A stretch of DNA of 64,000 nt from positions 384,001-448,000 of the forward strand of contig JBMNIW010000012.1 of NCBI GenBank assembly GCA_050951325.1, written 5' to 3'. The notes below the pieces were generated by a model. It was given only the letters and a program-made list of their open reading frames with translations. It did no database searches and was not told the DNA's origin. This stretch comes from Clostridia bacterium. Its GTDB lineage: Bacteria > Bacillota > Clostridia > UBA1212 > DUPL01. Positions within the stretch are counted from its first letter, which is position 1, and each line of letters begins with the position of its first letter. Positions 10,177 to 64,000 of the stretch are shown in pieces. Both the position numbers and the translations under genes were made by a program.

Positions 10177-10312
10177 CATTTATTTTACTTTCCTTATCAA
10201 CATGGCAGGGTGCCGTTTGTTCTGTCTTTTTCTTCAGACATAAGCCATAAATCGAGCTGGGGTTTACCACTATATCCGTCTCGTCAGTTTAATCTAACTA
10301 ATCCGCTTTTTA

Positions 10313-15349: not shown

Positions 15350-15489
15350 ACCTAAACGTCCCTCCTTGTTATTCTATAAGGCAATTATATCTTTTATCCC
15401 TTTTGCTATCAATGAACTATTTTAATTTATGTGCACAATTTTAATTCATTATGCCAATTTCAGTGAATAACTATACAACTTTTAAAAGC

Positions 15490-15533
15490 AAAAAAGCTAT
15501 ACACCTTTTTAGATGTATAGCTTCATTTTTTTT
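15490..15533 (-). terminator. Terminator after surface protein operon
   Basis: AAGCTATACA / TGTATAGCTT stem flanked by A/T runs. Confidence 0.6.
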
Positions 15534-15539
15534 GTTCAG

Positions 15540-16556: not shown

Positions 16557-16590
16557 TGTTTTTCCTCCCGTTATTTAGTTATTTTCTATT

Positions 16591-19029
16591 TTACTTTTTC
16601 TTTTTTCTCCTAATTGTATCTGAGATCAATAATCCGATTGCACCGGCAAAAAGCAGTGAAGAAACCAGGATAACTATAAACATAGTAGATACCTGAAATG
16701 TGTGCTTTCCATTTGCAGGTGTGAATACAAAAGTAAATCTTCCGTCAGGTGCTGCTTCTCCGTCTGTATAGAAGGACAATATATCACCGTCACTGCAATT
16801 ATTATCCGCCCACTTAAAGTACAGATGGGGTTTGCCGCCCTCCTGACCAATGGCACTGCGCGGTACTGCTAATGTCATTACATTGTTTTTGATGTAATAT
16901 TTTGCTTTACCTGTTTCTTCCCAGTTCCAGCCTCCAGTACTTTTCACGATGGTGCTGTAACCATTTTCCGGGGAAGTTATATTCACTGCATAGTCAAAAC
17001 CTTCCCAGCTCTTATCCAGGCTCATGTTTTTCGTGCTAATGAATAAACGCATCCAGTCCGGATCTTTAGGATCAGTTAAATTATTTAAAGTCTCTACGTA
17101 GAAATATATGTAATCCTTATCATAAATCACTTTGGATACAACAACATCGTTACGAACACCTTTGTTTGTGTAGTGTGTATCTCCGTAGCCGTCTTCATCC
17201 CTGTCTTCAGCATATCCAACATAGTGGGTATATGCATAGGCTTTATTAAAAGCTTTTATGTTAGTTATATCTATTGTCTTGTATGTATATGTTATATCAG
17301 GTTTGCTTACACCTTTGTATTTTCTGATATTGGAGATCAGCTGATAATAGTAGTTATCCTTCAGATCACCTTTAGTCGGTTCAACATCCCTTGAATACTC
17401 ATCTGTAAATACGTCGGGGAAAGCATTTTCAGTATATCCCCAGTCTTCATGTCTGCTTGCCTGCCATTCATTCCATCCGGTAACAAATATGAGGTCAGGA
17501 TTTACTTCAATTGCATAATCCCATTGCTCCTGAAAGTTGATCCCATAGTATTTCGAGTTGGGATCTGTAGAGAAGCCGTTTATCATAGAAAAGCTTCTTC
17601 CATAGACATCTATACCATTCATTGCTGTACCGCCGTACAGGGCATTTGCATTCTGTGCAACTCCAACAGTGATCTGTTCAACAGTTCCGTCAGGTCTTAC
17701 ACCGTATTTGCACTGTGGATAAACGGATAACCATCCCCAGTAAGTGCTGTGGGCAGGCTTCGTTGTAAAGTATGACGGGTCACAGGGTCTGAAGGTAAAG
17801 AAATCAAGCATTTCTTTAAATAACGGATCAGACTGCTGACCCAGTATCTCGGGGTATGCCATAACAAGGGGCTTACCTTCCCAATAGAACCACAGGTCCT
17901 GGTAATTTCCACTCCTGTATATGTCAAGATAAAGGTTGTACATCATCTCAGCAGTTGCAACAAAAGGCGCAAAGTTCAGCATAAATGCTATTTTAGGAGT
18001 GTTGACACCTGCCTGCCTTGCTTCTGCAAAGGCTTCAAGCAATGTTGTATAACCACCGCGCCAGGTGTAGTTTGCGTTTGTACAGTCAAATACAATAACA
18101 TCAACACCTGCATTTGCAAGCATTTCAGCATGCTTACGGTATACATATTTATCTAAAGATGTGTAGTAACCGTATAGCGGTTCATCCCAGAAATATGCGG
18201 CTGCCTTTTGCTCATACCATATCCTGTGCTTATAGTCATTCTTAGCCTCAGGATACTGCTTCATCAGATTTGTTAAGTTGATGGGCATACCTTCTATTTC
18301 AAAGTAATCATGAGCGATCCAGTAGAACATAGCCACATATTTGTTTTTCTTGCTGCTACCTACAGCCTCATAATCCGGTAACTCTCTTCCCAGAGCATCG
18401 ATTGCATGCCATGTTTCCGGTTTTACATTACGTTGGTTGATCGGATGATCCTTCGGTAATTTTGGTTCCCTGGGATCACTGACCTTTTCCGGTTCCTTTT
18501 CTTTTGATAAAGGAGCAAGGCTAGTTGAAGGTTCACCGTCGTATGTTATCTTCATCGAGATATTTCCAAGTCCTTTATACCCATTCGTATAAGTTACTGT
18601 ATGCTCAATATGGGTCCTGGTCTGACTAACCCCTATCCTTCCTTTAACATAATATACAACTGCAAGATATTCACCTTTTTCGGCTTCAACATTAAGGTTC
18701 AGCCATCTGTTGCCTAATACATCTTTAAAATCCTCTACTGCAACCGGCGCTGAGGATACGGTCTTTGAATAGCTTTCGTCCCATTTATACAGGGCGATCC
18801 TGCAGTCCTTTGTTGCACCAAAAGTTGTTATGTACACACTTACACGGGTTAGTTTATCAGTTGCGTTGAACCTTGTTCCGGCAGATCCATTCTTCTCGAT
18901 ATTGAAGTCACTCTTATCTCCTGTTGTATTGTAGAGGTTTATTGTGCTTCCTGATTTTGAATATATGACAGAACAGGAAAGTGCAAGACCCATAATAACG
19001 AAAAGGAATATCAGATATCGTTTTCTCAT
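16591..19029 (-). CDS. Membrane-anchored GH99/GH71-like glycoside hydrolase
   Basis: FWDEPLYGYY, HAEMLANAGVD, VTGWNEW; signal peptide and C-terminal TM with basic tail. Confidence 0.65.
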   Translation of the reverse strand: MRKRYLIFLFVIMGLALSCSVIYSKSGSTINLYNTTGDKSDFNIEKNGSAGTRFNATDKLTRVSVYITTFGATKDCRIALYKWDESYSKTVSSAPVAVEDFKDVLGNRWLNLNVEAEKGEYLAVVYYVKGRIGVSQTRTHIEHTVTYTNGYKGLGNISMKITYDGEPSTSLAPLSKEKEPEKVSDPREPKLPKDHPINQRNVKPETWHAIDALGRELPDYEAVGSSKKNKYVAMFYWIAHDYFEIEGMPINLTNLMKQYPEAKNDYKHRIWYEQKAAAYFWDEPLYGYYTSLDKYVYRKHAEMLANAGVDVIVFDCTNANYTWRGGYTTLLEAFAEARQAGVNTPKIAFMLNFAPFVATAEMMYNLYLDIYRSGNYQDLWFYWEGKPLVMAYPEILGQQSDPLFKEMLDFFTFRPCDPSYFTTKPAHSTYWGWLSVYPQCKYGVRPDGTVEQITVGVAQNANALYGGTAMNGIDVYGRSFSMINGFSTDPNSKYYGINFQEQWDYAIEVNPDLIFVTGWNEWQASRHEDWGYTENAFPDVFTDEYSRDVEPTKGDLKDNYYYQLISNIRKYKGVSKPDITYTYKTIDITNIKAFNKAYAYTHYVGYAEDRDEDGYGDTHYTNKGVRNDVVVSKVIYDKDYIYFYVETLNNLTDPKDPDWMRLFISTKNMSLDKSWEGFDYAVNITSPENGYSTIVKSTGGWNWEETGKAKYYIKNNVMTLAVPRSAIGQEGGKPHLYFKWADNNCSDGDILSFYTDGEAAPDGRFTFVFTPANGKHTFQVSTMFIVILVSSLLFAGAIGLLISDTIRRKKKK

Positions 19030-51776: not shown

Positions 51777-52076
51777 ATGCTGACAGGAAAACAGAGAGCA
51801 AATCTAAGAAAACTTGCAAACAATCTAGATACAATAATACAAATAGGCAAAGGGAATATTGAGCAGCCCTTGATAAAACAGGTTGATGATGCCCTTGCAG
51901 CAAGAGAATTGATAAAGGTAAGGGTGCTGACTGAAACCTCTGCACTGACACCTAGAGAAGCTGCCGACATTTTGGCAGAAGCAACTAACAGTGAGGTTAT
52001 TCAGGTTATCGGAAGCAGAATAGTGTTATTCCGCAGGAATCCGGAAAAGGGCAAATACGATGAATATATCAATTAG
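51777..52076 (+). CDS. yhbY: YhbY/CRM RNA-binding protein
   Basis: LTGKQRA.LR, IGK, ELIKV, QVIG..IVLFR. Confidence 0.93.
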   Translation: MLTGKQRANLRKLANNLDTIIQIGKGNIEQPLIKQVDDALAARELIKVRVLTETSALTPREAADILAEATNSEVIQVIGSRIVLFRRNPEKGKYDEYIN

Positions 52077-54160
52077 TCCTTGAAGAGAAGTTTCTCCAGT
52101 TCTTCTACACTGATAACCGGTGTGTGACATACTTTATTGTGGCAAAGATAATACGTTGTATTAGATTTTTTTGCATCGTAGTTTTTTGTATACGGTGCAA
52201 TTTTTTCTATTGTTTTTGCATTGGCCGGAGTCTTTACAATACAGGTTACATTGTACAAACTATGTTTTGCAAAAAGTCTCCTTATATCCGACATATCGAC
52301 TTCATCGCCAGGCAGAACCACAATCAGCTCCTTGGCAGGATAAAGATTCATCATGCCAGCCATCATGCCAAAAGAATGACCTGAAGGATAATGTTTTGTA
52401 GTCCTTGCGATAAATTGAAGCTGTTTGTACGCCAACTCTTCCCAATAAGGGTCAGCAGTTATTTTAGCAAGCAAGTTTATAATATATGCAGCAACGGAGT
52501 TTCCGGAGGGAAGAGCGCCATCGTACGTTTCTTTAGGACGCAAAAAGAGTGTCTCGTTTTGGTCCGAGTAAAAGTAGAAGCCTCCATCTTTTTCATCATA
52601 AAACTTCTTAACCATGTTTTGTGCATATGTTACTGCCTTAACCAGCCATTCTACTTCAAAAACCGTTTGGTAAAGGGTCAAGTAGGCAAATATGGTGAAT
52701 GCATAATCATCCAAAAAACCATCAACATTCTTTGTTCCTTCCCTGTAGCTTACATACAGATTGCCTTGACCATCAGACAAGTGGTTTTCAATGAAACATG
52801 CAGCATTTCTGGCAAGAATCAAATATTTCGGATTCTGGAGAACGGAATATGCTTTTGCTGAAGCTGCTATCATTAATGCATTCCAGGCGGTAAGGATTTT
52901 GTCATCAAGTGAAAGGCTCGTTCTTTGTTTCCTGTATTCATACAGCTCAGCAAATATTTCATTAAATCTGGCTCCTATGGGATGGACTTGATCAATGAAG
53001 TTTGCATAGTTCGGGTTGTTTATCAAGTTTGGTATGCTTTTTCCTTCAAAGTTTCCTTCTTGTGTTATGTCGAAGTTGGCGTTAAACAGTTTTCCATCTT
53101 CCTCTCCCAGAACCAGAATGGTTTCAGAAGGTGTAAATACATAGTATTTTCCTTCCACACCTTCGCTGTCAGCATCCTGAGCGGAATAGAATCCTCCTTC
53201 AACGCTGACCATTTCCTGGGAAATATATTTAAATGTTTTTACAACTATGTTCTTGAATAACTCGTTTTTTGTTATCTGATATGCTTCAAGGTATGCCATT
53301 ATTAATAGAGCGTTGTCGTATAGCATTTTTTCAAAATGAGGAAGCAGCCATTCATTGTCTGTTGAATATCGTGAGAAACCTCCTGCGATATGATCAAATA
53401 TGCCTCCTTTGTACATTTGTATGAGAGTATTAGCAGCCATTTCAATAGCCTTTTTGTCGTTTTCAAAAACACCATATCTTAAAAGAAATAAAAGATTGTG
53501 TGGCGTTGGGAACTTGGGTGCACTTCCAAAGCCTCCATGTTTTTCGTCATATATGCTCGCAAAGTGGTTTCTAGAGTTGTGAAAATACTCCAGGGTCATT
53601 CCTTCCTTGCCGGATTCCACAGCTTGACTTTCCAAAATTGCATTGATTATTTCATTGCCTACTCTGTGTAAAGATTCCTTGTCTGTTTGCCATTTCTCGG
53701 CAATAGTTGCAAGAATGTCAATAAGTCCGTGTCTTCCGTACTTGGTTCTCTTTGGAAAGTATGTGCCTGCATAGATTGGTGCTTTGTCTGGTGTAAGGAT
53801 TACCGTCAAAGGCCATCCACCTGAACCGGTCAGCATGGTGCATACATTCATATACACCATGTCAATGTCAGGTCTTTCTTCCCTGTCCACTTTAATGGAT
53901 ACAAAATATTTGTTTAATAGGGAAGCAACTTCTTCATCTTCAAAGGATTCTTCCGCCATTACATGGCACCAGTGGCAAGTCGGCTAATAACAGCAAAACT
54001 ACGAATACCCAATCGAAAGAAAGATTGGCTTCCCTTCTATTTTTGCTTTCTCAAAAGCCTCGTCTCCCCATGGAAACCAAGACACAGGATTGTAAGCATG
54101 TTGTAAGAGATAGGGGCTTTTCTCGTTTATCAATCGATTGGGTTTTCTATTGTTTGCCAT
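52073..54160 (-). CDS. yyaL: YyaL/SPATA20 thioredoxin-domain protein interrupted by an in-frame 21-nt insert with two TAG codons (recoded gene or pseudogene)
   Basis: [15 protein letters not shown]...IFLSIGYS, insert at 53981-54001, then [36 protein letters not shown] in the same frame. Confidence 0.85.
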
Positions 54161-54232
54161 ATTACCACCTCCCTTAAAAATCAAAGTTATTCTTTTATAA
54201 TAATATATCCTAAAATCACAAATTTAAAGGCT

Positions 54233-54261
54233 AAAGGCTACCGAATTTTACGGTAGCCTTT
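54233..54261. terminator. Intrinsic terminator near the island edge
   Basis: AAAGGCTACCG / CGGTAGCCTTT 11-bp stem. Confidence 0.75.
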
Positions 54262-54276
54262 GTGCTAGTGAACTCT

Positions 54277-54447
54277 TTACGCAGTTTTTTCAACCTCTGT
54301 AGCACTGTTCAATTTCGTAGTAACGTCTTTTTCGACATTACAAGTGTCCTTTGTAGTTATTGTATTATAAACTACTTGGCTTAAATTGGACAGTGCAAAC
54401 TGTGATGGTTTGTTAAGTTCTTTAACTACAAATTTAATTTTGGCCAT
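54277..54447 (-). CDS. Small hypothetical protein (56 aa)
   Basis: GGAGG RBS before ATG; MAKIKFVVKELNKPSQ. Confidence 0.55.
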   Translation of the reverse strand: MAKIKFVVKELNKPSQFALSNLSQVVYNTITTKDTCNVEKDVTTKLNSATEVEKTA

Positions 54448-54535
54448 CCAGTTAGCACCTCCAATTTTCTCTGTATCATTGGTAGTATAACACATAATTT
54501 TTGGAGAGTTCAGAAACATAGCAATCAATTAATAT

Positions 54536-54593
54536 AAGGAGTAACAATAAGAACCTACACCTTTAGTAGTTAGGTTCTTATTGTTTGTCTTTT
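54536..54593. repeat. Left hairpin repeat of the primase cassette
   Basis: 15-bp stem AACAATAAGAACCTA / TAGGTTCTTATTGTT; inverted copy at 56772-56827. Confidence 0.9.
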
Positions 54594-54789
54594 CTATAAA
54601 AAAGTCTATGTCAAAATTTGATTTCAATAACACAGTGATTATAATGCCAAAAAATCGATAATGGAGTCGCTAGCCTAAACGGAAAACACCTTGTTTTAAA
54701 GCGGAAATTTATAAAAATACTACGGAAAATGTTTCAATGTAAGCGAAAATCATAAAGTTTAGTGACTCCTCTCAAAAGGAGGAGTTATT

Positions 54790-56766
54790 ATGAATTCAAA
54801 AATTAACTATGAAAATCGCAAAGCATTGGACATTTCAGATTTTGAATTTTTATCCCTATTTAAAAAAGAGAATGAAAAGGTATATTTCAGGCTTATTCAG
54901 GAAGAAAATCATATAGCGAAAAACTTTGATTGTCTATTAAGCCTAGATAACGATTTAGAATACCCGCTTATGCAAAAGATTTTTCAAAAGTATCAAAATC
55001 AGGGTTTTGGGATTTATTTTGTAGTAAATAGTGGTGGTCAAAAGAAAAAGTCTATTAAACGGATAAATGCACACTTTATTGATATGGACTTTGGAAAGGT
55101 TCCAAAAATTATTAACGGGATATCTCTAAAAGATTCTAAGGGAAAAACTATTTATGAATATAGGAGTAAAGAAGAAATAGAAAAATATAAAATAGATTTT
55201 TTAAAGAGGTTGGAGAATTTTAAACTGAACCCAAATGTTATTGTAGAAACCAAAAATGGTTTCCATGTTTATTGGCTGCTTGACTTTGAGAAGACCCAAA
55301 ATTTATATTCATTTCCTCCACTGCAAGAAAAACTTATTGAGTATTTTGCTGCTTCTGAAGAAAGAAAAGAGCACGCTGATTCCAGCGTAAAGGATATAAG
55401 CAGAGTTTTAAGGCTAATAAACTATAAGCATTTAAAGAATCCCAAAGACCCCTTTACTATAAAGTGTATATATCTAAATACTAATATTAAATACACTCAG
55501 GAAGATATTGCCTCTGCTATAGGATACAATATCATTGAGTTGGTTAGTAATACGGAAATTGTTGAAATGAAATCAGTTGCTGTGAAGACTGAAACCAGCA
55601 ATTCGCCAAAAGAAAATATCGGGATTTCCCCCTCTTCAGTCTTGCAGTATGAAGATTTGATTCCGTTTTTAAAGCAACAGGATTTAATAGACTATCTTGG
55701 CATTGATTCAAAGCCTAATATAAACTTTAAATGCATATTTCATAATGACAATAAGCCCAGTGCTGTAATCAAAAATAATAACGGATACTATAAATATTTT
55801 TGTAATTCGCCTAACTGTACTTGCTATCACGAAGGTAAAGGCTTAGATATTATTGATATTGTTGAAATTAAAGAGAACTGTGATACTTCAACGGCTATTA
55901 AGAAATTGATTGAAGATTTTCATATTAAATTGGAAGATTCAACTTGGATAAATGAACAGAGTAAAAAATTCGAAAACAATATCAAACTTTTAGAGCAACT
56001 TACCCAAAAGGAAGATGAGTTTCCAAGCCTTAACCGAATCATAAAGTTTGGCTATCCCATACTAATGCACATTTTGGAAATTGGAAAGAATAACATCAGT
56101 AATCGGTTCTTTAGCGTAAGAGGAGAAAGCCTATTTTTCTTCTCTAACCGTTATTTAGCGAAAAAAATGAATAAAAATGTTTGTAACATAAATAAATATA
56201 TTAATTTGTTCTGCACATTAGGGCTTTTGCGCAAAATCCCATACAGAGATGTAAATCAAAATCTAAGAAAAACTGCTCTTCAACTTTCAAAAGAACATTC
56301 TCATAATGGTATATCCTTCTACACCATTCCTGACTATAGTGAGGCTTTTAAAACAGCAAATGAAAGGGCAGAAATAATGCTGGAATACCGCTTTACTATA
56401 AAAGGTATGAGCAAAAAATATATAGAAAATTGCTTTGGAGAAGAGTTTGCTAATCAAATTTATCATGTAGACATAAAGAGTAGTAAGAGAAGCGAGAACA
56501 TCAGAAACGCTATCGAAAAATTTATATTGCATCAAATCAAAATATATGGTTACTGTACTAAAGATATGATTATGACTCATAGATTAGTAGTTGATAACTG
56601 CTATATAAGAAAAGGAGTAAAAGATTATGAGTTTAGGAGAGTCCTCCCTGATATCATGCAAAAATACGACCTCGTATACAGAAAGGCAAATAAGAATATA
56701 AATAAAAAACTTGGGATTGATACAAAGAAATATTTAATTGTTCAGAGGAGCATTCTAGATGATTAG
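54790..56766 (+). CDS. RepB-type DNA primase domain plus CHC2 zinc finger replication protein
   Basis: FIDMD, VETKNGFHVYW, D.SRVLRL...H.K primase motifs; CIFHND..PS...YFC...C zinc finger; AAGGAGG RBS. Confidence 0.75.
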   Translation: MNSKINYENRKALDISDFEFLSLFKKENEKVYFRLIQEENHIAKNFDCLLSLDNDLEYPLMQKIFQKYQNQGFGIYFVVNSGGQKKKSIKRINAHFIDMDFGKVPKIINGISLKDSKGKTIYEYRSKEEIEKYKIDFLKRLENFKLNPNVIVETKNGFHVYWLLDFEKTQNLYSFPPLQEKLIEYFAASEERKEHADSSVKDISRVLRLINYKHLKNPKDPFTIKCIYLNTNIKYTQEDIASAIGYNIIELVSNTEIVEMKSVAVKTETSNSPKENIGISPSSVLQYEDLIPFLKQQDLIDYLGIDSKPNINFKCIFHNDNKPSAVIKNNNGYYKYFCNSPNCTCYHEGKGLDIIDIVEIKENCDTSTAIKKLIEDFHIKLEDSTWINEQSKKFENNIKLLEQLTQKEDEFPSLNRIIKFGYPILMHILEIGKNNISNRFFSVRGESLFFFSNRYLAKKMNKNVCNINKYINLFCTLGLLRKIPYRDVNQNLRKTALQLSKEHSHNGISFYTIPDYSEAFKTANERAEIMLEYRFTIKGMSKKYIENCFGEEFANQIYHVDIKSSKRSENIRNAIEKFILHQIKIYGYCTKDMIMTHRLVVDNCYIRKGVKDYEFRRVLPDIMQKYDLVYRKANKNINKKLGIDTKKYLIVQRSILDD

Positions 56767-56771
56767 TTTCA

Positions 56772-56827
56772 AAAAAGGCAAACAATAAGAACCTAACTAC
56801 AGTAGTGGGTTCTTATTGTTACTCCTT
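56772..56827. repeat. Right hairpin repeat of the primase cassette
   Basis: AACAATAAGAACC / GGTTCTTATTGTT stem; 20-bp and 22-bp blocks are exact reverse complements of the left copy. Confidence 0.9.
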
Positions 56828-57075
56828 TTCTATAAATACCTAGACTAATAAAGAAGTTAGCAATCTTTTTATTCTCAAATAATATAATATAAGGCATAAA
56901 TTAAGCAACATTCCGATTGGGAACAAACAATCACAACTATCTACTTCCAATTAATTCATATTTGATTATATTATCTACTTTGTATATTTTTATATTTAAC
57001 ATTTGGATTTGTATATTGCTGATGTTTTTTCTTCTCCCATATTCAAATGAAAGTGTTTAAAAGAACTATAGTAAT

Positions 57076-57699
57076 TTATTCAATATTTGCTTGATTAAGG
57101 TTATTCTCATATTCCTTAACCCTTCTGTAAAATGTATTTCGCTTCATCATACATAATTCCATCGCTTTAACTGCTGTTATCTTTCCTGATTTCCATTGCT
57201 TATATGCTTTTACAAAATTATCGTCTATAATATGTTTTGGTCTTCCGAAGCGAACTCCTTTTGCCTTTGCTACGGCTATTCCCTGGCGTTGTCTTTTCCT
57301 AATATTATCTCTTTCTCTCTCTGCAACAAAACTTAGAACCTGAAGTACCAAATCACTTACAAAATTACCTAATGTGTCCTTATATTGAGTAGTATCTAAT
57401 AGGGGCATGTCTAAAACTTTAATGTCCGCTTTGATTTCCTCTGTTATTTCTCTCCACTCTTTTAGAATTTCTCTGTAATTTCTTCCGAAACGGTCAATTG
57501 CCTCAACTATCAATAAATCGCCCTGGTTTAACACTCTTTTCAATAGTTGATATTCTCTCCTCTCAAAGTCTTTGCCGCTTTCTTTATCCATAAAAATAAA
57601 ACGCTCATCGACCCCATGTTTTTTCATCTCTTCTATTTGCCGTGCCTCATTTTGGTCCTTAGAACTGACCCTTATATACCCATAGATTCTTCTATTCAA
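57076..57699 (-). CDS. Small serine recombinase (resolvase/invertase family)
   Basis: YIRVSSKDQN..RQ, DRFGR, RQRQGI..AK..G..FGRP, C-terminal HTH. Confidence 0.95.
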   Translation of the reverse strand: MNRRIYGYIRVSSKDQNEARQIEEMKKHGVDERFIFMDKESGKDFERREYQLLKRVLNQGDLLIVEAIDRFGRNYREILKEWREITEEIKADIKVLDMPLLDTTQYKDTLGNFVSDLVLQVLSFVAERERDNIRKRQRQGIAVAKAKGVRFGRPKHIIDDNFVKAYKQWKSGKITAVKAMELCMMKRNTFYRRVKEYENNLNQANIE

Positions 57700-57736
57700 T
57701 TTCTCATCATCCTTTACTAAGGAAATCTAAAGACTA

Positions 57737-57846
57737 TTTCAAAAGGTTGCTGCACTTTTGAAACATATTTCAAAAGTAAAAATTAACTTTTTGAAATGCA
57801 AATTTTGACCTTATTGACCTGTTTCAAAAAGTGTAGTTTTTGAAAC
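57737..57846. promoter_or_regulatory. Putative res site with three dyad subsites
   Basis: TTTCAAAA...TTTTGAAA dyads at 57737-57763, 57768-57796 and 57821-57846, upstream of the resolvase. Confidence 0.75.
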
Positions 57847-57972
57847 TATAAGATACTATTTCTTTTAATACATGAACCAAGTAATACAAACATTGAATAT
57901 GTAAAAGATTTAGAGATAAGTGGTAAGTTTGACCTTATCCTCTTATCCCTATACACCCTTATCCCTACTTTT

Positions 57973-58173
57973 CTAACTATGCTGTTTTATTTCCTTCCAT
58001 TCTCTTATATTATCTTTAATAAAAAATGCTGTCACTATAACAAATGGCATTATTGCGAGCCATCTGTATTCGAAGAATAATCTCTGGTAAAAGTAGTAAA
58101 TCAAAAAGAATGTTGTGTATGCTACTATTGTTGGTATTACTATATAAAAAATTATATCTAATCTCTTTCTCAT
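57973..58173 (-). CDS. Small two-TM membrane protein
   Basis: Two hydrophobic segments; AGGGAG RBS. Confidence 0.5.
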   Translation of the reverse strand: MRKRLDIIFYIVIPTIVAYTTFFLIYYFYQRLFFEYRWLAIMPFVIVTAFFIKDNIREWKEIKQHS

Positions 58174-58432
58174 CAATAATCAACTCCCTTCTTCATCTAT
58201 ATGGTAGCGCGCACAAAGAAATTTGTCAGGTCCAATTTCTAAAAATGTAATTTATTTGTAATAAAGTTATTAAATTTTGCCGTCTTAAAATACTTCAAAA
58301 TCCTTGATACTTAAACCTTTTTCCCATGCAAACTAAAATACATATATAATTAATAGTGCTCAGGATAGAAGGTTCAAATTGAAATAGAAATAATATGACT
58401 TTAAAAAGCGATAGAATCAAATAGAAATCTCT

Positions 58433-59302
58433 TTATTTTATATTAAATACCATTTTTTCAAGTTCATTTATGGTGCTGATGCATATAGCCTTTCTAATCC
58501 AATCTATTAATATACTTTCATTTTGTTCGTTCATAATTGCATGGCTAATATAGTCAGGTAAAGAATCAAACTTATATAAAAGGATTACTAACAACGAGTC
58601 CCGCAATCCTTCCTTCTTCCCTTCATCTCTAATTCTCAATCCTACTTCCGTATCCATTAAACATTCCTTTACAATGTCTACTACTTCATATTCACCAAAT
58701 CGTGATGCTATTTCAGTTATAACTGTTACATAAGCCACCCGTTCATCTTCATCTCTTATACTCTCTAATAAAAGCATAACTTTTTTAAATGCTTTATTGA
58801 AGGATGTCGAATGCTTCATAAATGGAAAAAATACCAGGTTCAATTTGTCTCTCTCATTAAGTAGTTTACCTAAAGTAATTTTTTGACTTAGTTCCTCATA
58901 TACCTTATCCCCATCAATACCTGATAAATCTACTATTTGAACTTCATAACATATTGAGCCGAAGTTTCTTATTATTTTGCCATCTTGCCTGATTCCAAAA
59001 TTCAGGATTACTGTCCTTACCTTAAATCCATATCTTAAAACTATACTCATGTCATAAGCAAACATTCCCGGGTAGTCAGGTTTTATTTCTTCATTCATAA
59101 TTTCTATGTGAAGCAATGTATCATCCTCAAGTAAAAACATCAGTAATGGTAGTTTATAATTTTCTATCTTTTCTACTTCCACTATTTCTTTAACCTTTTC
59201 TGATTCTAAACCAATCTCCTTGAATGATAGCCCTTGAAATATCCTATTATAACTTTTTTCATTGAAACTCTCTTCCTGAAAGTTTGCTCTCATATCCGTC
59301 AT
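58433..59302 (-). CDS. Rpn/YhgA-like PD-(D/E)XK family protein, diverged
   Basis: LLEDDTLLHIEI, MFAY, VRTVIL, EGKKEG...L..KF C-terminal pattern. Confidence 0.6.
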   Translation of the reverse strand: MTDMRANFQEESFNEKSYNRIFQGLSFKEIGLESEKVKEIVEVEKIENYKLPLLMFLLEDDTLLHIEIMNEEIKPDYPGMFAYDMSIVLRYGFKVRTVILNFGIRQDGKIIRNFGSICYEVQIVDLSGIDGDKVYEELSQKITLGKLLNERDKLNLVFFPFMKHSTSFNKAFKKVMLLLESIRDEDERVAYVTVITEIASRFGEYEVVDIVKECLMDTEVGLRIRDEGKKEGLRDSLLVILLYKFDSLPDYISHAIMNEQNESILIDWIRKAICISTINELEKMVFNIK

Positions 59303-59577
59303 CTCTTATCCTTGCATTTTGCTGCATCAAATTTTCTCAAAATTAAAAGCACATTCTCCTTAATTATTGCCAGTATAAACCCGGCTGTGAAAAGAGAATG
59401 TGCTCTCTACCTGTTTTTCAAAAATTATTGTAGCGCATATAGATAGAGAAAACAATAAACTCATAAAATTATATTAACTTCTATTTTTTTACTAATGAAA
59501 CTTATGATTCTAAAAATTTGACTTTCAACCTGCATGTGACTATAATGCTTCAAATTTCTGTAAAGGGGTGCTTAGTA

Positions 59578-59871
59578 ATGATAAACCTTGAAGTTTTGAT
59601 ATTGGAACTAAATTACTTGAAACAGGTTATAAAGGCCGTATTAGGGGATAAGGTTTCAGCAGAAATAAATGAAGCAATAACTGCATTGATTATTTCTTTC
59701 CTTTTCCCTAATGCCTATGATTCCTTATCATTTTCTTATATCCAAACAATTGAACAGTATTTAAAACAAACTCAGCAAAAATTAATACCTTATGAATATA
59801 AACAAATGCTTAACAACATCCCTTCAATAAGGAATTTATTAGTGAAAGTAAAACTTGAGATGTCCGTGTAA
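59578..59871 (+). CDS. Hypothetical protein
   Basis: ORF with AGGGGTG RBS before ATG 59578. Confidence 0.5.
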   Translation: MINLEVLILELNYLKQVIKAVLGDKVSAEINEAITALIISFLFPNAYDSLSFSYIQTIEQYLKQTQQKLIPYEYKQMLNNIPSIRNLLVKVKLEMSV

Positions 59872-59957
59872 TGTACTTATAAAATAATACAGGCTTTACA
59901 GGATATACATCCTTATCCCCAAAGCCTTCTTCCTTTATCCTAATTTTCCTTAACCTC

Positions 59958-60224
59958 TCAATCACCTTGTTCCCTTATAAACTGAAATAAGTCTGAATTA
60001 TCCATTTCCCTAAAATCATCGGCTTTTATAATATTTGTTAAAATTATCAAGGTGTTATTTTTATTCATTTTACCGGCTAAAGTAAATCTAAAATCTTTAT
60101 CATAAGCAATTATGAAATCCCGGTCCTTTTCTATTTTAATTACTTCTAGTTGCTTTATAATGTCTTCTTTATTTAATTTGTATTCATCAATAAGTTCATC
60201 ACATTCGATAAAAACCTTATTCAT
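59958..60224 (-). CDS. Hypothetical protein
   Basis: 88-aa ORF with AAGGTGA RBS. Confidence 0.6.
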   Translation of the reverse strand: MNKVFIECDELIDEYKLNKEDIIKQLEVIKIEKDRDFIIAYDKDFRFTLAGKMNKNNTLIILTNIIKADDFREMDNSDLFQFIREQGD

Positions 60225-60346
60225 ATTTCCATATCACCTTTTTCATATATTACTTTTCATATTATATAAATTTGTTATCTCTAAATCAATTGGAATAAAT
60301 CCTTGTAATCCCCTTGAAATAATACTTTTCCTTATTTCCTTTATCC

Positions 60347-61075
60347 TTAATCTACAATATCAAATATCCCATTTTTACACCTATAAACTTTACCTGAAAT
60401 CCTGTTCGGGTCTTTATCTATCATAATCAATGATTCAATAATTTTTATATATTCAAGACAATATCTAGCCACAATTAAAGTAGTTGACGAGGGGATTGCA
60501 AAAATATAATCCCGTCCTACTTTTTTTAATATCTGTTTTTGTATGGAATCACTAAGTAGGAACGATGCATTGAAATCCGTAGTATATCGCAAACAGTATA
60601 AATTTAGCGCATCATCCAATCGTACCAGTATGTTGGAAAGTTTATTCAGATTTTTCCATGCTGCCTTTTTCATTTTTTCAAAGTCTACATCGTCGCTAAA
60701 TAGTATGAATCTAAAAACTTCTCCGATATCCGAAGCATAAAAAATATCTACATCAGCAAATGCATGTTCTCTATAAAACCCTAAATCCTTTTCCCCTTTC
60801 CCAAAATCCCTGCTCTTAAGCAGCGGAAAAACATTGTTGTAGTCAATCTTAAATTTATATTGACTCAAAATATCATTAATAATTTTAATATATGATGCTA
60901 AAGTTTTCCCATAATCCTTGGTCTCTTGGTATTCCTTATAAATACTACTAACAGGTATAGACACACTGTTTGGGTTAGACTCCACAATAACATACTTTCC
61001 CTGGACCCTTGCTATAGGAAATGTTTTATTTAAATCAAAAATTATCTTCCTTGAAAAATCAGCAATAGTAAGCAT
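60347..61075 (-). CDS. DUF1444/YtpQ-like protein
   Basis: VFPLLK, IFYASD.G..FRFI, AWKNL, ASFLL, FAIPS; AAGGAGG RBS. Confidence 0.6.
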   Translation of the reverse strand: MLTIADFSRKIIFDLNKTFPIARVQGKYVIVESNPNSVSIPVSSIYKEYQETKDYGKTLASYIKIINDILSQYKFKIDYNNVFPLLKSRDFGKGEKDLGFYREHAFADVDIFYASDIGEVFRFILFSDDVDFEKMKKAAWKNLNKLSNILVRLDDALNLYCLRYTTDFNASFLLSDSIQKQILKKVGRDYIFAIPSSTTLIVARYCLEYIKIIESLIMIDKDPNRISGKVYRCKNGIFDIVD

Positions 61076-61246
61076 TACCTACCTCCTTAATAACTCTATT
61101 AAAACACAAAAAGCATACTCTCTTAACTTATTCCAGCATCTACTGGCTGTAAGAGAATATGCTCTCAATCTGTATACTTATATTTTACGTTATACTATAG
61201 GCAAGCGCAATCTTTTTGTTTTAAATTTAATACTGTGAATATAAAC

Positions 61247-61825
61247 TTACTCTGTAGGTTCAATTATTTCTAATCTAAAGTTCCAACCTTCGCAGGACAT
61301 CAATATCCTACCGAATTCCTCCAGGCTGTATTCCAGTCCATCTATGATAAATTTGGGCGTTCTGTCATATCTATCATCCCCTTCAATACGCCCTTCTACT
61401 ACATTCCCCTTAATAGAGACAAGTTCTTGTCCTTGAATTATTCCTTTCCTTATAAACTTTTTTGATAACCCTTTCTTTATCTTTTTATAAAGTCTTTCCA
61501 GAGCATCATTTGAATCTTCTTCAAAATCCTGATGTACTTCAAAAGAATAGCCTATTTTATTTTCGCCTATAAACTCTACCGCTTCCCAACAAATACCTGT
61601 TGGGTTTATCATTTTTCCTATTTTAAATCGATGTTCTATTCCATCGCAATCTATAAAAGTAACCTCTTTTTCAAAATCTTTATAGTCTTCAAAACCAAGC
61701 ATATTAGCCGCAAACTCGTTGTAGCAGTCTCTACATATAGATTGGGATGGCTCGTCTTCTTTTATAGTTAAGACTACCATTCCAAAACCGCTTGCCACTC
61801 TTTCACACTTTTGACACCTATTCAT
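61247..61825 (-). CDS. Hypothetical protein with N-terminal CxxC...CxxC zinc ribbon
   Basis: CQKC...CRDC; C-terminal IDG..YS.EEFG..L...EGW.F. Confidence 0.75.
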   Translation of the reverse strand: MNRCQKCERVASGFGMVVLTIKEDEPSQSICRDCYNEFAANMLGFEDYKDFEKEVTFIDCDGIEHRFKIGKMINPTGICWEAVEFIGENKIGYSFEVHQDFEEDSNDALERLYKKIKKGLSKKFIRKGIIQGQELVSIKGNVVEGRIEGDDRYDRTPKFIIDGLEYSLEEFGRILMSCEGWNFRLEIIEPTE

Positions 61826-61854
61826 GCAAATTCTCTCCTTAAAACCGACTGGAA

Positions 61855-62748
61855 TTACTCTTGAATCCTATATTTTTCTATCATCCTCTTTGAAATAGAA
61901 GTTAACTGCTCTTTTACTAATATCTTTTCTTTCCATCTGTCAGGGATAGCACCATAGCCATAATACACTCCAGCCATTCCGCCGGTAATTGCGGCTATAG
62001 TATCCGCATCTCCTCCAAGGTTGGCCGCTTCACACACAGCATCCTCGAAGGAAGAAGTATTAATAAAACACCATAATGCACATATCAATGTATCAAGCAC
62101 ATATCCCGTTGGCTTCAGTTGGTCTTTTGACAACTGAAATACCTGCTTATATTCTGGGTACTTTTCAATATATTCCCTAATAGGTGGTATTTTAGACTTA
62201 CCATTGAGATACTGGTAAACTAACAGATTATAAAACTGGCAGGCATCTGTCGCTTTTTGGTCATAATGGGTAAGAACGCTTTGCGAAGCAGTTATCACCA
62301 GCATTTTTTCAACATCATTATAATATAATGCAACCGGTAAACACCTCATAAGTGAACCATTGCCGGCGCTCATACCGCCTGTTGTTTGATGAGCGTAATA
62401 GGCTGTTTTCATCCAGTCATTGCTTCTTTTATACTCGCCAAGTGCAATTCGGATAATGTTGCCGATATCTTTAGGTTTACTATCATACCATTTAATAAAG
62501 TGTTTTCCGATATCTTCGATAGGATTCTCTGGGTTGTCCAGGATGCCTTCTGCGACAGCAATAGTCATCATTGTATCGTCCGTCACTTCCCCAGGTTCCA
62601 GGTCCCAACAGCCACCACCGATAATGTCTTTTAAGTATCCATACTTTCTTTTAATCTCATCCTTTAACATAAACTCAAGCGTTGCACCCAGTGCATCACC
62701 GCAAGCGACCCCAAAAAGCCCTCCAAGTATCCGTTCATATCGATCCAT
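61855..62748 (-). CDS. ADP-ribosylglycohydrolase (DraG/ARH family)
   Basis: GDALGA, TDDT, GNGSLMR, TH, GGDADT. Confidence 0.93.
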   Translation of the reverse strand: MDRYERILGGLFGVACGDALGATLEFMLKDEIKRKYGYLKDIIGGGCWDLEPGEVTDDTMMTIAVAEGILDNPENPIEDIGKHFIKWYDSKPKDIGNIIRIALGEYKRSNDWMKTAYYAHQTTGGMSAGNGSLMRCLPVALYYNDVEKMLVITASQSVLTHYDQKATDACQFYNLLVYQYLNGKSKIPPIREYIEKYPEYKQVFQLSKDQLKPTGYVLDTLICALWCFINTSSFEDAVCEAANLGGDADTIAAITGGMAGVYYGYGAIPDRWKEKILVKEQLTSISKRMIEKYRIQE

Positions 62749-62771
62749 TCAGATTCCTCCTATAACATCTG

Positions 62772-64000
62772 CTAAGGCCTGCTGTTTAACTTCTCATAAG
62801 TCTCAATCAGCATATACTCCATAAGAGCATTCTTAAATTGCTCATCGTCTAAAATACGGGTAAAGAATGCCTGGTTCTGGTCCATCCTATCAATCACTTT
62901 ATTAATAAACACTTTCTCAAAAGCAAGCCTAAAGTCGTCAATGGTATTTGTTTTAGCCTTTTGAACCAAATCTTCATCAGCAGCAAAATCCTCTTTTATT
63001 TGCTCTACCGATAATTGGTCCGCTTTTGTGAAATTAGTTCCAAACCGCTTATTAAGACGCTCAATAATGCTGGACAGATATTCTTCCTGTTCTTCCTTTA
63101 CCCCAGTTCCTGCAAATTTTACAGGTGTAACTGGTACATTTTCATCATCTGGGGTTAATGAGATGCTCCCTTCAAAGGTCTTTTTGGTAGTATAATACTC
63201 TAAAGCAATTTCATCAGCAAGATGAACAGTCGAGCCTTTTTCCTTTGGAAGTTTTTTAAGCAGATATGTTAAATATACATACAACTTATGGAGTTCAACA
63301 TCTTCAAAAGGCGTTATTTGAAGAATAAAGGAATAAAGCCTTATGTATTTCGTCGCTTGGCTACTGAAATCTTGCTTTCGCTGTTCCTCTAGTTTCTTAA
63401 ACCTCTCTACGGCTATATCTATCAAATGATTTAACACTGCCCTATCTTTGGAAGTCTTTTTATCCTTGGGCTTAAAATAAATATAAGCAAACTTATCTAA
63501 TTCCTCTTTGAGATATACACCGTAAGCATGTAGTTGAGTTTCAATATCATAGAGCAAGTTAGGTTCTGTAACTTCTTCCACAATAGTTGCCTGATAATAG
63601 GGCTTGAAGGCTTCCTGAATATCCTCTGCCTTATTTACAAAGTCAAGGATAAAGGTATCATCTTTTCCTGCACATTTTCTATTGAGCCTTGATAAAGTCT
63701 GTACTGCCTTGACTCCCGACAACTTTTTATCGACATACATGGTATGTAAAAGAGGCTGGTCAAAACCTGTCTGGTACTTTTCAGCAACTAAAAGTACCTG
63801 ATATTCATCCGTGGCAAAGCGTTCTGGAAGTTCCGATTCCTTAAAGCCATTCATATCACTTTCTTTATAATCTACACCACCGTCTTTTACCGTTCCTGAA
63901 AAGGCTACTAATGTCTTCATATCCTTATAGCCCTTCTTTTTGATATATTCATCAAATGCATGTTTATAGCGTACAGCATGGAGCCTGGAACTAGTTACAA
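62772..64000 (-). CDS. hsdR: Type I restriction endonuclease subunit R, C-terminal part
   Basis: SRLHAVRY, VAFSG, KYQTGFDQP.LHTMYVDK, AVQTLSRLNR; frame open to window end. Confidence 0.93.
   Translation of the reverse strand, partial: VTSSRLHAVRYKHAFDEYIKKKGYKDMKTLVAFSGTVKDGGVDYKESDMNGFKESELPERFATDEYQVLLVAEKYQTGFDQPLLHTMYVDKKLSGVKAVQTLSRLNRKCAGKDDTFILDFVNKAEDIQEAFKPYYQATIVEEVTEPNLLYDIETQLHAYGVYLKEELDKFAYIYFKPKDKKTSKDRAVLNHLIDIAVERFKKLEEQRKQDFSSQATKYIRLYSFILQITPFEDVELHKLYVYLTYLLKKLPKEKGSTVHLADEIALEYYTTKKTFEGSISLTPDDENVPVTPVKFAGTGVKEEQEEYLSSIIERLNKRFGTNFTKADQLSVEQIKEDFAADEDLVQKAKTNTIDDFRLAFEKVFINKVIDRMDQNQAFFTRILDDEQFKNALMEYMLIETYEKLNSRP

Follow-up and report, generated by a model that had tools for sequence, protein, structure and literature searches.

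The yyaL Locus

The window, the 64-kb stretch of DNA that was analysed as a whole, contains on its minus strand a gene of the DUF255/YyaL family, in which an N-terminal CxxC thioredoxin-like domain is followed by a long alpha/alpha-barrel part. A 21-nt insert with two in-frame TAG codons lies between the GYS and TCHWC motifs of this gene. Both halves match the Pfam profile PF03190 (Thioredox_DsbH), the N part at profile positions 1-47 (E 1.4e-19) and the C part at positions 55-162 (E 8.6e-42). Thousands of relatives of 670-700 aa are named thioredoxin domain-containing protein or YyaL, and identity to relatives is 43-50% over the full length. The features of the locus are as follows:

54228-54200, minus strand: promoter-like site for the N-terminal copy (match 9/12)
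54002..54160, minus strand: island-borne copy of yyaL codons 1-53, from the ATG at 54160 to the Ser codon
54016-54005, minus strand: frozen synonymous block TCG ATT GGG TAT
54004-54002, minus strand: Ser codon TCG, the proposed take-off codon
53981..54001, minus strand: 21-nt insert TAG TTT TGC TGT TAT TAG CCG, read from 54001 down to 53981
54001-53999, minus strand: TAG directly after the take-off codon
53983-53981, minus strand: CCG, the proposed landing triplet
53969..53980, minus strand: shared core ACT TGC CAC TGG, inner half-site plus resumption codons, with symmetry around CAC-TG-G
53971-53970, minus strand: dyad centre TG, the putative crossover dinucleotide
52073..53968, minus strand: host-derived rest of yyaL, the remainder of the thioredoxin-like domain plus the alpha/alpha-barrel part

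A Shine-Dalgarno-like AAGGGAGGTG is located upstream of the ATG at 54160, outside the 54002..54160 part. The first-pass annotation, which was made from the sequence letters, had described a precise in-frame insert of 21 nt with two amber codons, the removal of which restores the family motif, and a downstream part of 628 aa with no other lesion. These three points stand: the insert reads as described, GYS directly precedes [TSA]CHWC in 9 uninterrupted relatives, and the frame of the host-derived part is open to its stop codon (52073-52075), with 628 aa counted from the first ATG of the downstream ORF.

A single copy of the 21-mer is present in the window, where 0 are expected, and the genome as a whole has just this one. 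Of the words sampled from window positions 53500-54500, at least 98% are present in 14 DNA runs from 12 studies, all of which are marked as a possible source; only one of them can be. The downstream ORF belongs to a protein cluster of 17 members from 17 contigs, each called at 628 aa, and among the matches listed the nearest other cluster is 56% identical, with no empty-site allele of the source species. The identical junction is found in three further loci (L060, L146, and L147). The earlier view that the insert does not look like a homopolymer sequencing error is upheld by the 14 DNA runs, the 17 contigs, and these three loci; the insert is not private to this assembly.

A Defence Island at the Active-Site Codons

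It is near certain that the 21-nt insert is the end of a mobile island integrated at the active-site codons of yyaL, that it forms the outer portion of an attachment-site arm (P arm) for a recombinase, and that the first 53 yyaL codons, together with the promoter region and the insert, belong to the island and not to the host. The insert plus the next 6 nt is an inverted repeat, at 18/21 positions, of the sequence after the core at G000:C12 ~464030; the repeat is centred on the TG of CAC-TG-G, and likewise in G321 and G041. The island extends over ~26 kb from the yyaL junction to this point beyond the window. Of the options first offered for the insert, a mobile element scar came closest to what is found, but the locus is a live-type island junction and not a scar. 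The left part of the island and the recombinase gene near its far end were annotated with Pfam as follows:

54161..64000, no strand: left part of the island (Pfam on L145 = C12:438001-456000)
54790-56766, plus strand: 658-aa protein with a weak primase zinc-ribbon match
57076-57699, minus strand: small resolvase
60347-61075, minus strand: DUF1444
61247-61825, minus strand: DUF7685/7686/7713 protein
61855-62748, minus strand: ADP-ribosylglycohydrolase
62772 onward, minus strand: type I HsdR, start of the gene
C12:462499-463971: large-serine-recombinase (LSR) gene, 490-aa ORF (PF00239, PF07508, PF13408)

Past the window, the island contains GmrSD, HsdS, HsdM, IS21, GNAT, and the LSR gene; its cargo consists of type I R-M, GmrSD, and similar genes. 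The LSR carries Resolvase, Recombinase, and Zn-ribbon domains, and its gene ends ~50 nt from the first displaced fragment, which is also the partner site. Two displaced, uninterrupted yyaL 5' fragments are present (C12:464023-464223 and C12:468168-468449). The former joins the N-terminal piece to the core without a gap, and the gap is therefore perhaps not obligatory for all such elements.

Compared with its G321 homologue, the LSR of the source genome is missing ~25 residues at its start, the nucleophile motif among them, and may therefore be inactive. G321 has an intact LSR that abuts the same kind of site and is 30% identical to that of the source genome (E 9e-63), the single comparison from which the recombinase family is assigned; it also has an attP-like copy with the same dyad. 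With the source-genome LSR as the query, no close relative was found among the genome contigs searched.

The element side of the junction is 100% identical to L146 and L147 over their reach (85 and 65 nt), whereas the host side is only 64-67% identical to them directly after the CAC-TGG-TG core; identity between species stops right past TGCCACTGGTG. Across the family, N-side and C-side distances are uncorrelated (r 0.15, 5253 pairs). Since the element end is identical across three species, the insertion in the source genome is recent, and that the host ORF is intact therefore says nothing about function. Recombination of attP with attB, or excision, is predicted at CAC-TG-G, and excision would fuse the displaced fragment in frame with the host part. 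No excision joint was present in the assembled contigs of three RNA runs and one DNA run, which as contigs cannot show absence; loose ends near 53950-53956 in one DNA run stem from different yyaL genes that pass the 90% likeness cut-off. Structural work and a small number of alignments made by hand suggested that the gap may shift a recombinase zinc-ribbon motif outward by 5 bp relative to the target site, an idea that carries no weight here.

Recurrence of the Gap in Relatives

A degenerate scan found the same gap design at at least 120 loci, in at least 120 species. A stop codon (TGA, TAG, or TAA) opens the gap in 119 of the 120 loci listed, and TGG is never found there. Recurrence at GYS/TCHWC with a conserved length phase had been put forward as a check; the recurrence is borne out but the phase is not, as the gaps in these 120 loci measure 14-30 nt in any phase (length modulo 3, 50/21/49), with 70/120 out of phase. 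Selenocysteine was dropped as an explanation because all three stop codons occur at the gap start. There are also arrays of short, attP-like forms whose sequence stops shortly past CHW. A reading of the short Cys-rich forms as RiPP precursors was dropped, as they are junctions with island ends, adjoined by dyad partners and by recombinase or restriction genes.

In C. ljungdahlii and H. hathewayi, a search for the partner arm with up to 3 mismatches matched only the site itself, and a partner arm more decayed than this would escape the search. No second DUF255 copy was found in either, and no LSR was found upstream of the gene or beside the site; in C. ljungdahlii the nearest PF07508 match is ~12 kb downstream on the same contig. 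With no partner arm at up to 3 mismatches, no second DUF255 copy, and no adjoining LSR, excision cannot rebuild yyaL in these two organisms. In public protein sets, roughly one in five close homologues of YyaL is represented by a truncated ORF of 613-636 aa.

Selection and Codon Use

The island-borne N-terminus has a dN/dS of 0.11 at a dS of 1.35 across island copies, and the host side a dN/dS of 0.12, compared with 0.17-0.20 in uninterrupted controls. The N-fragment is under purifying selection, which had been proposed earlier as a check on both halves. Just upstream of the take-off codon, synonymous positions are frozen only in interrupted genes. In a comparison of 117 interrupted loci with 35 low-GC controls, GGG is used in 85% versus 3%, TCT in 90% versus 20%, and ATT in 95% versus 40%. 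In the window, codon -4 is TCG, where TCT is the usual form in relatives. The base after the stop codon is C in 62/119 gaps, compared with 11% C elsewhere. Counted from the 3' end of the gap, positions 13-14 are 52-59% G, and positions 4-9 are 63-92% A+T (median about 0.82). Gene 60-type bypassing would have a mini-SD shortly before the landing triplet in an A+U-rich 3' gap; the G-rich motif here may instead be a recombinase site. The G/T-rich motif of the gap and the upstream ATTGGG motif resemble each other and the target's own sequence, and the nucleotide conservation may therefore partly serve recombinase binding and not the ribosome.

Among 114 loci, the landing triplet agrees with the take-off codon at position 1 in 67, at position 2 in 98, and at position 3 in 51; permutations give 47, 51, and 25, and 0/5000 of them reached the observed match. 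Among 33 independent close pairs that differ in Ser codon class, the landing triplet tracks its own take-off codon in both members in 25 pairs, in one member in 7, and in neither in 1; it never tracks the take-off codon of the other member. In the AGY class, 21/48 landing triplets match the take-off codon at a single base. These nearest-pair analyses and the thinning described below replaced edit-distance clustering, which grouped 113/120 loci together. In the window, CCG, described in the first pass as similar to TCG, matches it at 2/3 bases only.

Gaps also avoid the triplets of their own class: those of the TCN class contain 12 TCN and 34 AGY triplets, and those of the AGY class contain 23 TCN and 3 AGY triplets (Fisher 3e-7; 3e-5, 1e-3, and 0.02 after thinning), while the antisense control gives a p of 0.26. 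The family CCN, which is a landing triplet in the TCN class, is the most depleted one in TCN-class gaps. The gap in the window is likewise free of premature landing triplets, with no TCN or CCN ahead of the landing triplet; it has no GG and no clear G-rich mini-SD.

RNA Structure and Transcripts

A small hairpin within the insert had been pointed out in the first pass. This GCUG/UAGC pairing is present in the MFE fold of the window sequence, but the fold is no better than that of shuffled sequences (z -0.66), and the hairpin is not conserved in relatives: RNAalifold on the 18-, 20-, and 21-nt classes found no conserved hairpin around the take-off codon and gap, and single-sequence folding over the 120 loci listed gave a mean z of +0.23 with no consensus hairpin. 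The take-off stem-loop of gene 60-type bypassing is thus not found here. Positions 53932-54146 are matched by a 215-nt RNA-library contig that shows 0 differences, 0 gaps, and the insert unspliced; such libraries can contain DNA. No joint that skips 53981-54001 was seen in contigs of three RNA runs and one DNA run, which report presence and not absence. ARAGORN found no tRNA with a CUA anticodon among 44 tRNAs in the genome, which is 96% complete.

Proposed Mechanism and Alternatives

We consider it probable, at about 0.58, that the locus is an island junction whose attachment-site arm is skipped by translational bypassing. Bypassing, one of several options raised initially, is the best functional reading on the comparative evidence, but the hairpin suggested along with it has no part in it. 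The hop is deduced from sequence statistics on related, non-independent loci. The missing take-off stem-loop, the single-base landing matches in the AGY class, the 2/3 match, the lack of a clear mini-SD and the TCG at codon -4 in the window, and the possible role of the conserved motifs in recombinase binding count against it. For the wider family, the balance tips slightly towards a general design in which LSR islands of Bacillota would hide an attachment-site arm in the active-site codons of yyaL as a gap of 14-30 nt that ribosomes hop over.

A defence island of the LSR type is integrated at the CxxC codons of yyaL with the crossover in CAC-TG-G, and the host's own yyaL 5' end is displaced 26 kb upstream. 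The end of the island supplies a promoter-like region, a ribosome-binding site, codons 1-53, and then the outer half of the arm. In the proposed model, the island would repair the gene that it splits. After 53 codons, the ribosome would pause, its peptidyl-tRNA-Ser paired with UCG and its A site occupied by UAG. From there it would release the mRNA, slide 21 nt across the recombinase-binding sequence, and re-pair on CCG with 2/3 bases, and translation would resume at ACU UGC CAC UGG to give GYS-TCHWC with no extra residues. The sequence TCT ATT GGG TAY, together with the C after the stop codon, would favour take-off over termination, and the GGG 3 nt before the take-off codon would act in a Shine-Dalgarno-like manner. 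It is proposed that the arm is kept as a non-coding gap because a recombinase site cannot encode the invariant LSIGYS and yet differ from the target.

A less likely account, to which we nevertheless give real weight, involves no recoding: yyaL would be off while the island is resident, like the genes split by skin and SPbeta, and would be rebuilt only by recombinase-driven excision. The N-terminal copy, the stop codon, and the conserved nucleotides would then serve the element, through a 53-aa product, through binding of the recombinase or an accessory protein, or by blocking translation into the site. The observed junction and the in-frame fusion that excision would produce agree with this, as do the arrays of attP-like short forms, the resemblance of the gap motifs to the target's ATTGG.TAT, which could make them protein-binding sites, and the missing take-off hairpin. 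It does not explain why a fragment that is never joined keeps the family residues at a dN/dS of 0.11, why a stop codon and never TGG is the first codon of the gap, why the landing triplet switches when the Ser codon changes synonymously or in class, or why only triplets cognate to a gap's own take-off codon are avoided, and on the sense strand only. The source-genome LSR without its nucleophile motif and the C. ljungdahlii and H. hathewayi genes, which excision cannot rebuild, also speak against it.

A split protein, read-through, and removal from the RNA were also among the options named in the first pass. A split protein, in which translation stops, restarts nearby, and yields a 53-aa N-fragment that assembles non-covalently with a C-fragment, is improbable, even though the N-fragment is under purifying selection and phage genes divided by mobile elements into pairs of interacting ORFs have been reported (bioRxiv 10.1101/2022.08.31.505936, Manning and Atkins). 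A deliberately split protein that keeps its CxxC would need a start codon that is missing in the window and in 83/119 relatives; only 36/119 loci offer a correctly framed ATG, GTG, or TTG ahead of the Cys codon, at scattered positions and mostly as TTG. In the window, CCG ACT is immediately preceded by an in-frame TAG, and no further ATG comes until past CHV; a restart would therefore lose the CxxC motif, and neither the co-variation of take-off and landing nor the triplet avoidance is predicted by a split. Read-through of both TAG codons, by a suppressor or with pyrrolysine, would insert 7 residues before CxxC and fits the window, with its in-phase insert and TAG at both stops; with 70/120 gaps out of phase among those listed, three types of stop codon, and no CUA-anticodon tRNA among the 44, it is most improbable. 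Equally hard to credit are removal of 21 nt from the RNA, an assembly or sequencing artefact, and a private inactivating mutation, given that the RNA-library contig carries the insert, that no joint skips it, and that the junction recurs in the runs, contigs, and loci listed above and its design in at least 120 species.

Comparison with Known Systems

In gene 60-type bypassing, as far as the sources describe it, a stop codon follows the take-off codon, and the take-off and landing codons can pair with one tRNA (bioRxiv 10.1101/2022.08.31.505936; PMC7026636). As described there, the T4 gene 60 cassette with the MobA homing endonuclease, its Myoviridae homologues, and yyaL have in common that foreign DNA sits in invariant codons; in T4 gene 60 and yyaL alike, a copy of the adjoining coding sequence comes with the element, and the gap keeps the DNA site of the element distinct from the target. 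The two differ in that T4 gene 60 involves a homing endonuclease in a phage and yyaL a large serine recombinase in a bacterial chromosome, and the gap is 50 nt in the former and 14-30 nt in the yyaL loci. The take-off stem-loop, a key element of the gene 60 mechanism, was not found in the yyaL loci. Unlike in T4 gene 60, landing in yyaL is often near-cognate (2/3), with a Shine-Dalgarno-like GGG upstream of the take-off codon. The yyaL junction and T4 gene 60 share no sequence homology, and the hop in yyaL is a putative one.

The byp elements of Magnusiomyces mitochondria are, in the accounts cited, numerous short mobile inserts in coding sequence that are bypassed, and their landing tolerates wobble and larger deviations (bioRxiv 10.1101/2022.08.31.505936; PMC7026636). 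In contrast to byp, which affects many genes, yyaL presents one site in one gene family that is used by site-specific islands in many bacteria. The byp elements are GC-rich, measure 27-55 nt, and are scattered over many genes of one mitochondrial genome.

Elements of the LSR type inside genes include skin in sigK, SPbeta in spsM, and phi10403S in comK, where excision rebuilds the gene. These are not known to bring a substitute for the gene end that they displace, and the gene is inactive until excision; in contrast, the yyaL island contributes 53 conserved codons, the last of which lies precisely at the site. A programmed shift that shares part of the yyaL signal is the prfB (RF2) +1 site, which has a Shine-Dalgarno-like G run 3 nt before the P-site codon with a UAU spacer, and a stop codon in the A site followed by C. 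The prfB shift moves by +1 onto an overlapping codon and autoregulates RF2, whereas the ribosome on yyaL would move 14-30 nt.

Islands at tRNA and tmRNA genes and at the dusA 5' end supply the displaced part of their target, and the displaced fragment marks the far end (PMC4383910, PMC4482086). Such islands use tyrosine integrases with an identical core, and regeneration is seamless because of this identical core, whereas the regenerated yyaL gene holds a non-coding gap.

Significance

Programmed bypassing is known, within what the cited accounts cover, from T4 gene 60, from homologues of it in phages, and from the mitochondria of a single yeast lineage (bioRxiv 10.1101/2022.08.31.505936; PMC7026636), and nothing in the literature searched linked yyaL/DUF255 or serine-recombinase islands to bypassing. 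If the proposed reading is true, the yyaL loci would be the first programmed-bypassing family in bacterial chromosomal genes and the second independent case of mobile DNA that hides its own site in an invariant motif via bypassing. They would provide more than 100 natural variants of a minimal, hairpin-free bypass signal, consisting of the Shine-Dalgarno-like GGG, a stop codon plus C, a gap from which cognate triplets are missing, and landing on a near-cognate triplet. The minimal needs for ribosome take-off, sliding, and landing would then be directly testable, and some of the carriers are cultured, genetically tractable anaerobes. Interrupted yyaL loci are likely to be filed as pseudogenes, and the yyaL core is a recurrent docking site for defence islands.

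Interruption of the yyaL frame

The yyaL gene (DUF255, PF03190) is arranged in the window as follows.

54160 (ATG) onward, minus strand: N part of yyaL, 53 codons, ending FLSIGYS
54001 down to 53981, minus strand: 21-nt insert TAG TTT TGC TGT TAT TAG CCG, between GYS and TCHWC
Open to the stop at 52073, minus strand: C part of the yyaL reading frame, beginning ACT TGC CAC TGG TGC

The insert, both amber codons and the interrupted frame are borne out by the window sequence in every detail of the first-pass annotation, which also stated correctly that removal of the 21 nt restores the family motif: nine uninterrupted relatives read GYS directly followed, without a gap, by [TSA]CHWC. The N part covers positions 1–47 of the PF03190 profile and the C part positions 55–162 (Pfam), and the 21-mer is found once in the window and once in the genome. 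The interruption is neither private to this assembly nor a sequencing fault. The junction is present in 14 DNA runs from 12 studies, each flagged as a possible source, and in 17 contigs, and interruptions recur in other species, which excludes an artefact.

Recurrence in other genomes

The closest relative found among 40 same-order genomes (48% identity) has an insert of 17 nt at the identical position, where it breaks the frame and likewise opens with a stop codon. A degenerate pattern (FLSIGYS, 1 to 30 extra bases, xCHWC) applied to one genome per prokaryotic species gave at least 120 loci, and in 120 of 120 considered here the 14–30 extra bases lie directly 3' of the Ser codon. A stop codon opens the insert in 119 of these (TGA 56, TAG 44, TAA 19), 116 have an upstream frame of 51 or more open codons, and 108 have no stop within the approximately 104 downstream codons examined. 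Insert lengths modulo 3 are distributed 50/21/49.

The carriers are nearly all Bacillota. Cultured carriers with complete genomes include Hungatella hathewayi DSM 13479, Geosporobacter ferrireducens, Clostridium ljungdahlii, [Clostridium] symbiosum, and Anaerocolumna, Desulfitobacterium, Desulfosporosinus, Paenibacillus, and Lentibacillus species. The motif was matched in 106 of 400 evenly sampled genomes of the window's class, and among the matches listed 21, in 20 genomes including the window's own, are interrupted. Among the 120 best homologues of the downstream ORF, about one-fifth are annotated with a length of 613–636 aa and PF03190 as the sole domain (for example P0017, P0022, P0026, P0033, P0036, P0038, and P0040); they probably represent further interrupted genes that annotation has taken for N-terminally truncated proteins. 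An identical 20-nt gap occurs in records of different phyla, L036 (a Sumerlaeota MAG) and L023 (a Syntrophomonas MAG). In L036 it lies at the contig start (bases 4–58), the gap being followed by a short tail and a stop; either an island has spread across phyla or a contig is misplaced.

Origin of the insert in an integrated island

Two further, uninterrupted motif matches lie 26 and 30 kb upstream on the same strand of the window's contig (C12), outside the window.

C12 464023–464223 (locus record L144, 8023–8220): displaced yyaL 5' fragment, uninterrupted, short ORF
C12 468168–468449 (L144, 12168–12422): displaced yyaL 5' fragment, uninterrupted, short ORF
26 kb between the insert and the nearer fragment: cargo of a primase-like protein, small resolvase, type I restriction-modification, GmrSD, ADP-ribosylglycohydrolase, IS21, and GNAT

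In each short ORF, CHWC and a few further residues follow a piece of the yyaL N-terminus. About 50 nt from the nearer fragment is the end of a gene for a large serine recombinase (LSR; Resolvase, Recombinase, and zinc-ribbon domains). The core of this fragment, TGTCACTGGTG, is followed by an inverted repeat of the window insert plus ACTTGC (18/21) with its dyad centre at the TG of CAC-TG-G. Given this recombinase, the inverted repeat and the 26-kb cargo, the insert site and the nearer fragment are almost certainly the ends of an integrated defence island. The 21-nt insert is the outer part of the island's P arm (attachment-site arm), and the first 53 yyaL codons in the window are the island's, not the host's. 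Direct proof at the sequence level comes from records of two other species, L146 and L147, which are 100% identical to the window 5' of and through the core (85+56 and 65+56 nt) and drop to 64–67% identity directly after it. Over 5253 pairs from 103 loci, distance on the N-side does not correlate with distance on the C-side (r 0.15); in some pairs the N-sides and gaps are identical and the host parts differ by 32%, and other pairs show the reverse.

Similar arrangements are found elsewhere. In genome G321 an intact LSR, 30% identical to that of the window's genome over its full length (E 9e-63), adjoins the site, with an attP-like copy at a distance of 48 kb. A genome of Anaerocolumna has its partner arm 24 kb from the site and again a type I restriction system as cargo. 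The LSR of the window's genome lacks about 25 N-terminal residues of the G321 homologue, including the Y-x-R-x-S stretch, which we take to be the location of the nucleophile serine, and the island may be locked in place. All three frames upstream of this LSR (C12 462499–463971; L144 6499–7971) are closed, and a few kb 5' of it lie an IS21 element (IstA/IstB-like; L144 2460–4701) and a GNAT gene.

The downstream arms of the two displaced fragments are related and 4 kb apart, which points to tandem docking of two islands. Between the fragments lie a HaeIII-like endonuclease fragment and ORFs that match no Pfam family, and in one displaced fragment the N-terminal piece joins the core with zero gap. 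Interrupted short forms also occur in arrays, two or three of them 4–20 kb upstream of an intact, uninterrupted yyaL, in Desulfosporosinus metallidurans (L141; short forms 6406–6620 and 10298–10500, full-length gene 14859–17030) and at G340:C1:1777508–1797059. These arrays, which lie among an IS66 fragment and transporter gene pieces in an order incompatible with a single simple integration, seem to be what is left of tandem or decayed islands. Some ten of the 120 loci are short forms that were considered as small Cys-rich peptides, a reading that was rejected; each is an island end joined to another island end. Within the window's island, beside type I restriction-modification and GmrSD, an ADP-ribosylglycohydrolase gene adjoins one for a 192-aa protein of DUF7685, DUF7686, and DUF7713 (61247–62748, minus strand), and the two may form an uncharacterised defence pair. 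RNA-library contigs (runs X16 and X17) cover 54103–54401, comprising the N-terminal copy and up to 240 nt 5' of its ATG; their extension past a promoter-like site (54228–54200) reflects either read-through from the island or DNA in the libraries.

Selection and codon use

Both halves are constrained. The island-borne N-terminal copy has a dN/dS of 0.11 at dS 1.35 and the host side of interrupted genes 0.12, compared with 0.17–0.20 in uninterrupted low-GC controls. Because its 53 residues keep the family's constraints, the N piece would most simply be part of a full protein. Synonymous sites just 5' of the proposed take-off (the Ser codon before the gap) are frozen in interrupted genes only, while the Ser codon itself and sites farther upstream vary freely.

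Table. Codons 5' of the take-off in 117 interrupted loci and 35 low-GC uninterrupted controls
Codon -2: GGG, interrupted 85%, controls 3%
Codon -3: ATT, interrupted 95%, controls 40%
Codon -4: TCT, interrupted 90%, controls 20%
Codon -6: TTC, interrupted 64%, controls 26%
Codon -8: CCT, interrupted 64%, controls 13%

The frozen ATTGGG block and a G/T-rich gap motif resemble the target's own sequence and so may be recombinase contacts.

Proposed take-off, gap and landing

The stop is always the first gap codon, is of three types and never TGG, and lies outside the symmetric region in four of four dyads examined. The last gap triplet (the proposed landing) and the Ser codon agree at positions 1/2/3 in 67/98/51 of 114 distinct loci, against 47/51/25 under label permutation (0 of 5000 permutations do as well); no such match was seen for triplets elsewhere in the gap. 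Among 51 non-overlapping nearest pairs with different Ser codons, 33 differ in class (TCN versus AGY). In 25 of these the landing middle base tracks its own take-off in both members, in seven it does so in a single member and in one in neither; in none does it track the other member's take-off. Kin loci are not independent, yet class switches recur among N-sides 8–15% apart and within families of similar gaps.

Downstream of the stop, 12 TCN and 34 AGY triplets occur in TCN-class gaps, and 23 TCN and 3 AGY in AGY-class gaps (Fisher 3e-7). Own-class counts are 4- to 6-fold below shuffles, none of 2000 being equally low, and the contrast persists after thinning to 85, 65, and 29 dissimilar gaps (p 3e-5, 1e-3, and 0.02) and is absent on the antisense strand (p 0.26). 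The most depleted of 16 dinucleotide-start families are CCN and TCN in the TCN class, CCN being its commonest near-cognate landing triplet, and AGN in the AGY class, where many landings match the take-off at a single base. C directly follows the stop in 62 of 119 gaps and makes up 11% of the remaining gap bases.

How the rebuilt gene is read

We think that a recombinase site alone would leave six patterns unexplained: N-side constraint, stop position, landing match, triplet avoidance, frozen codons, and C after the stop. On these comparisons, translational hopping has the strongest support as the way in which the rebuilt gene is translated (probability about 0.6). In the window, peptidyl-tRNA-Ser would sit on UCG with UAG in the A site, land on CCG after the 21-nt gap with two of three bases paired, and resume translation at ACU. 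The window gap has no TCN or CCN before the landing, whose CCG matches the TCG take-off at two of three bases, and the TCN-reading tRNAs of this genome have anticodons UGA and GGA. Several points weigh against hopping. A conserved take-off hairpin was sought in relatives and the window and was not found, many AGY-class landings share a single base with the take-off, and the gap motif and the frozen block may be recombinase contacts. In the window itself the insertion is recent, since the island end is identical in three species, and the intact host ORF is therefore uninformative on function.

The main rival, plain inactivation of yyaL until excision, appears less likely. Excision cannot restore the gene in C. 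ljungdahlii or H. hathewayi, because the interrupted gene is the sole DUF255 copy (as in two further complete genomes), no partner arm was found in either with up to 3 mismatches, and neither carries an LSR adjoining the site or 5' of the gene; in C. ljungdahlii the closest PF07508 match is on the same contig, about 12 kb downstream. A split protein with translational restart is highly improbable, as neither the window nor 83 of 119 loci offers a start codon. Amber read-through is contradicted by the gap phases and stop types of relatives, and no CUA tRNA was found in the genome. RNA-level removal of the 21 nt was also rejected: in three RNA runs and one DNA run, no contig joint that leaves out the insert was seen. 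A 215-nt metatranscriptome-library contig spans 53932–54146 without any difference, although RNA libraries can hold DNA and assembled contigs prove presence only. A complete genome (G165:C1:521004–521498) has an 18-nt, in-phase gap with a single TAG, through which the Pfam match runs straight; read-through and bypassing products would differ there by six residues, making it a useful test case.

Relation to known systems

The GGG-UAY-Ser-stop of interrupted yyaL is similar to the frameshift site of RF2. The skin and SPbeta elements are examples of gene-splitting LSR elements. Both islands that restore a gene after splitting it (PMC4383910, PMC4482086) and gene-splitting LSR elements (PMC5025042) are known, and the island junction itself therefore belongs to this known class. 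Programmed bypassing is described from T4 gene 60 and phage homologues, all on a homing-endonuclease element, and from Magnusiomyces mitochondria (bioRxiv 10.1101/2022.08.31.505936; PMC7026636). According to the preprint, gene 60 homologues show the same avoidance of own-tRNA triplets in the gap (bioRxiv 10.1101/2022.08.31.505936), a rule like that at yyaL. A full-text literature search found no paper linking yyaL/DUF255 or serine-recombinase islands with bypassing. If real, bypassing at yyaL would differ from the known cases in affecting a cellular gene, in using a recombinase arm as the gap, in its short gap and in having no hairpin, and it is open to direct test in the cultured carriers.
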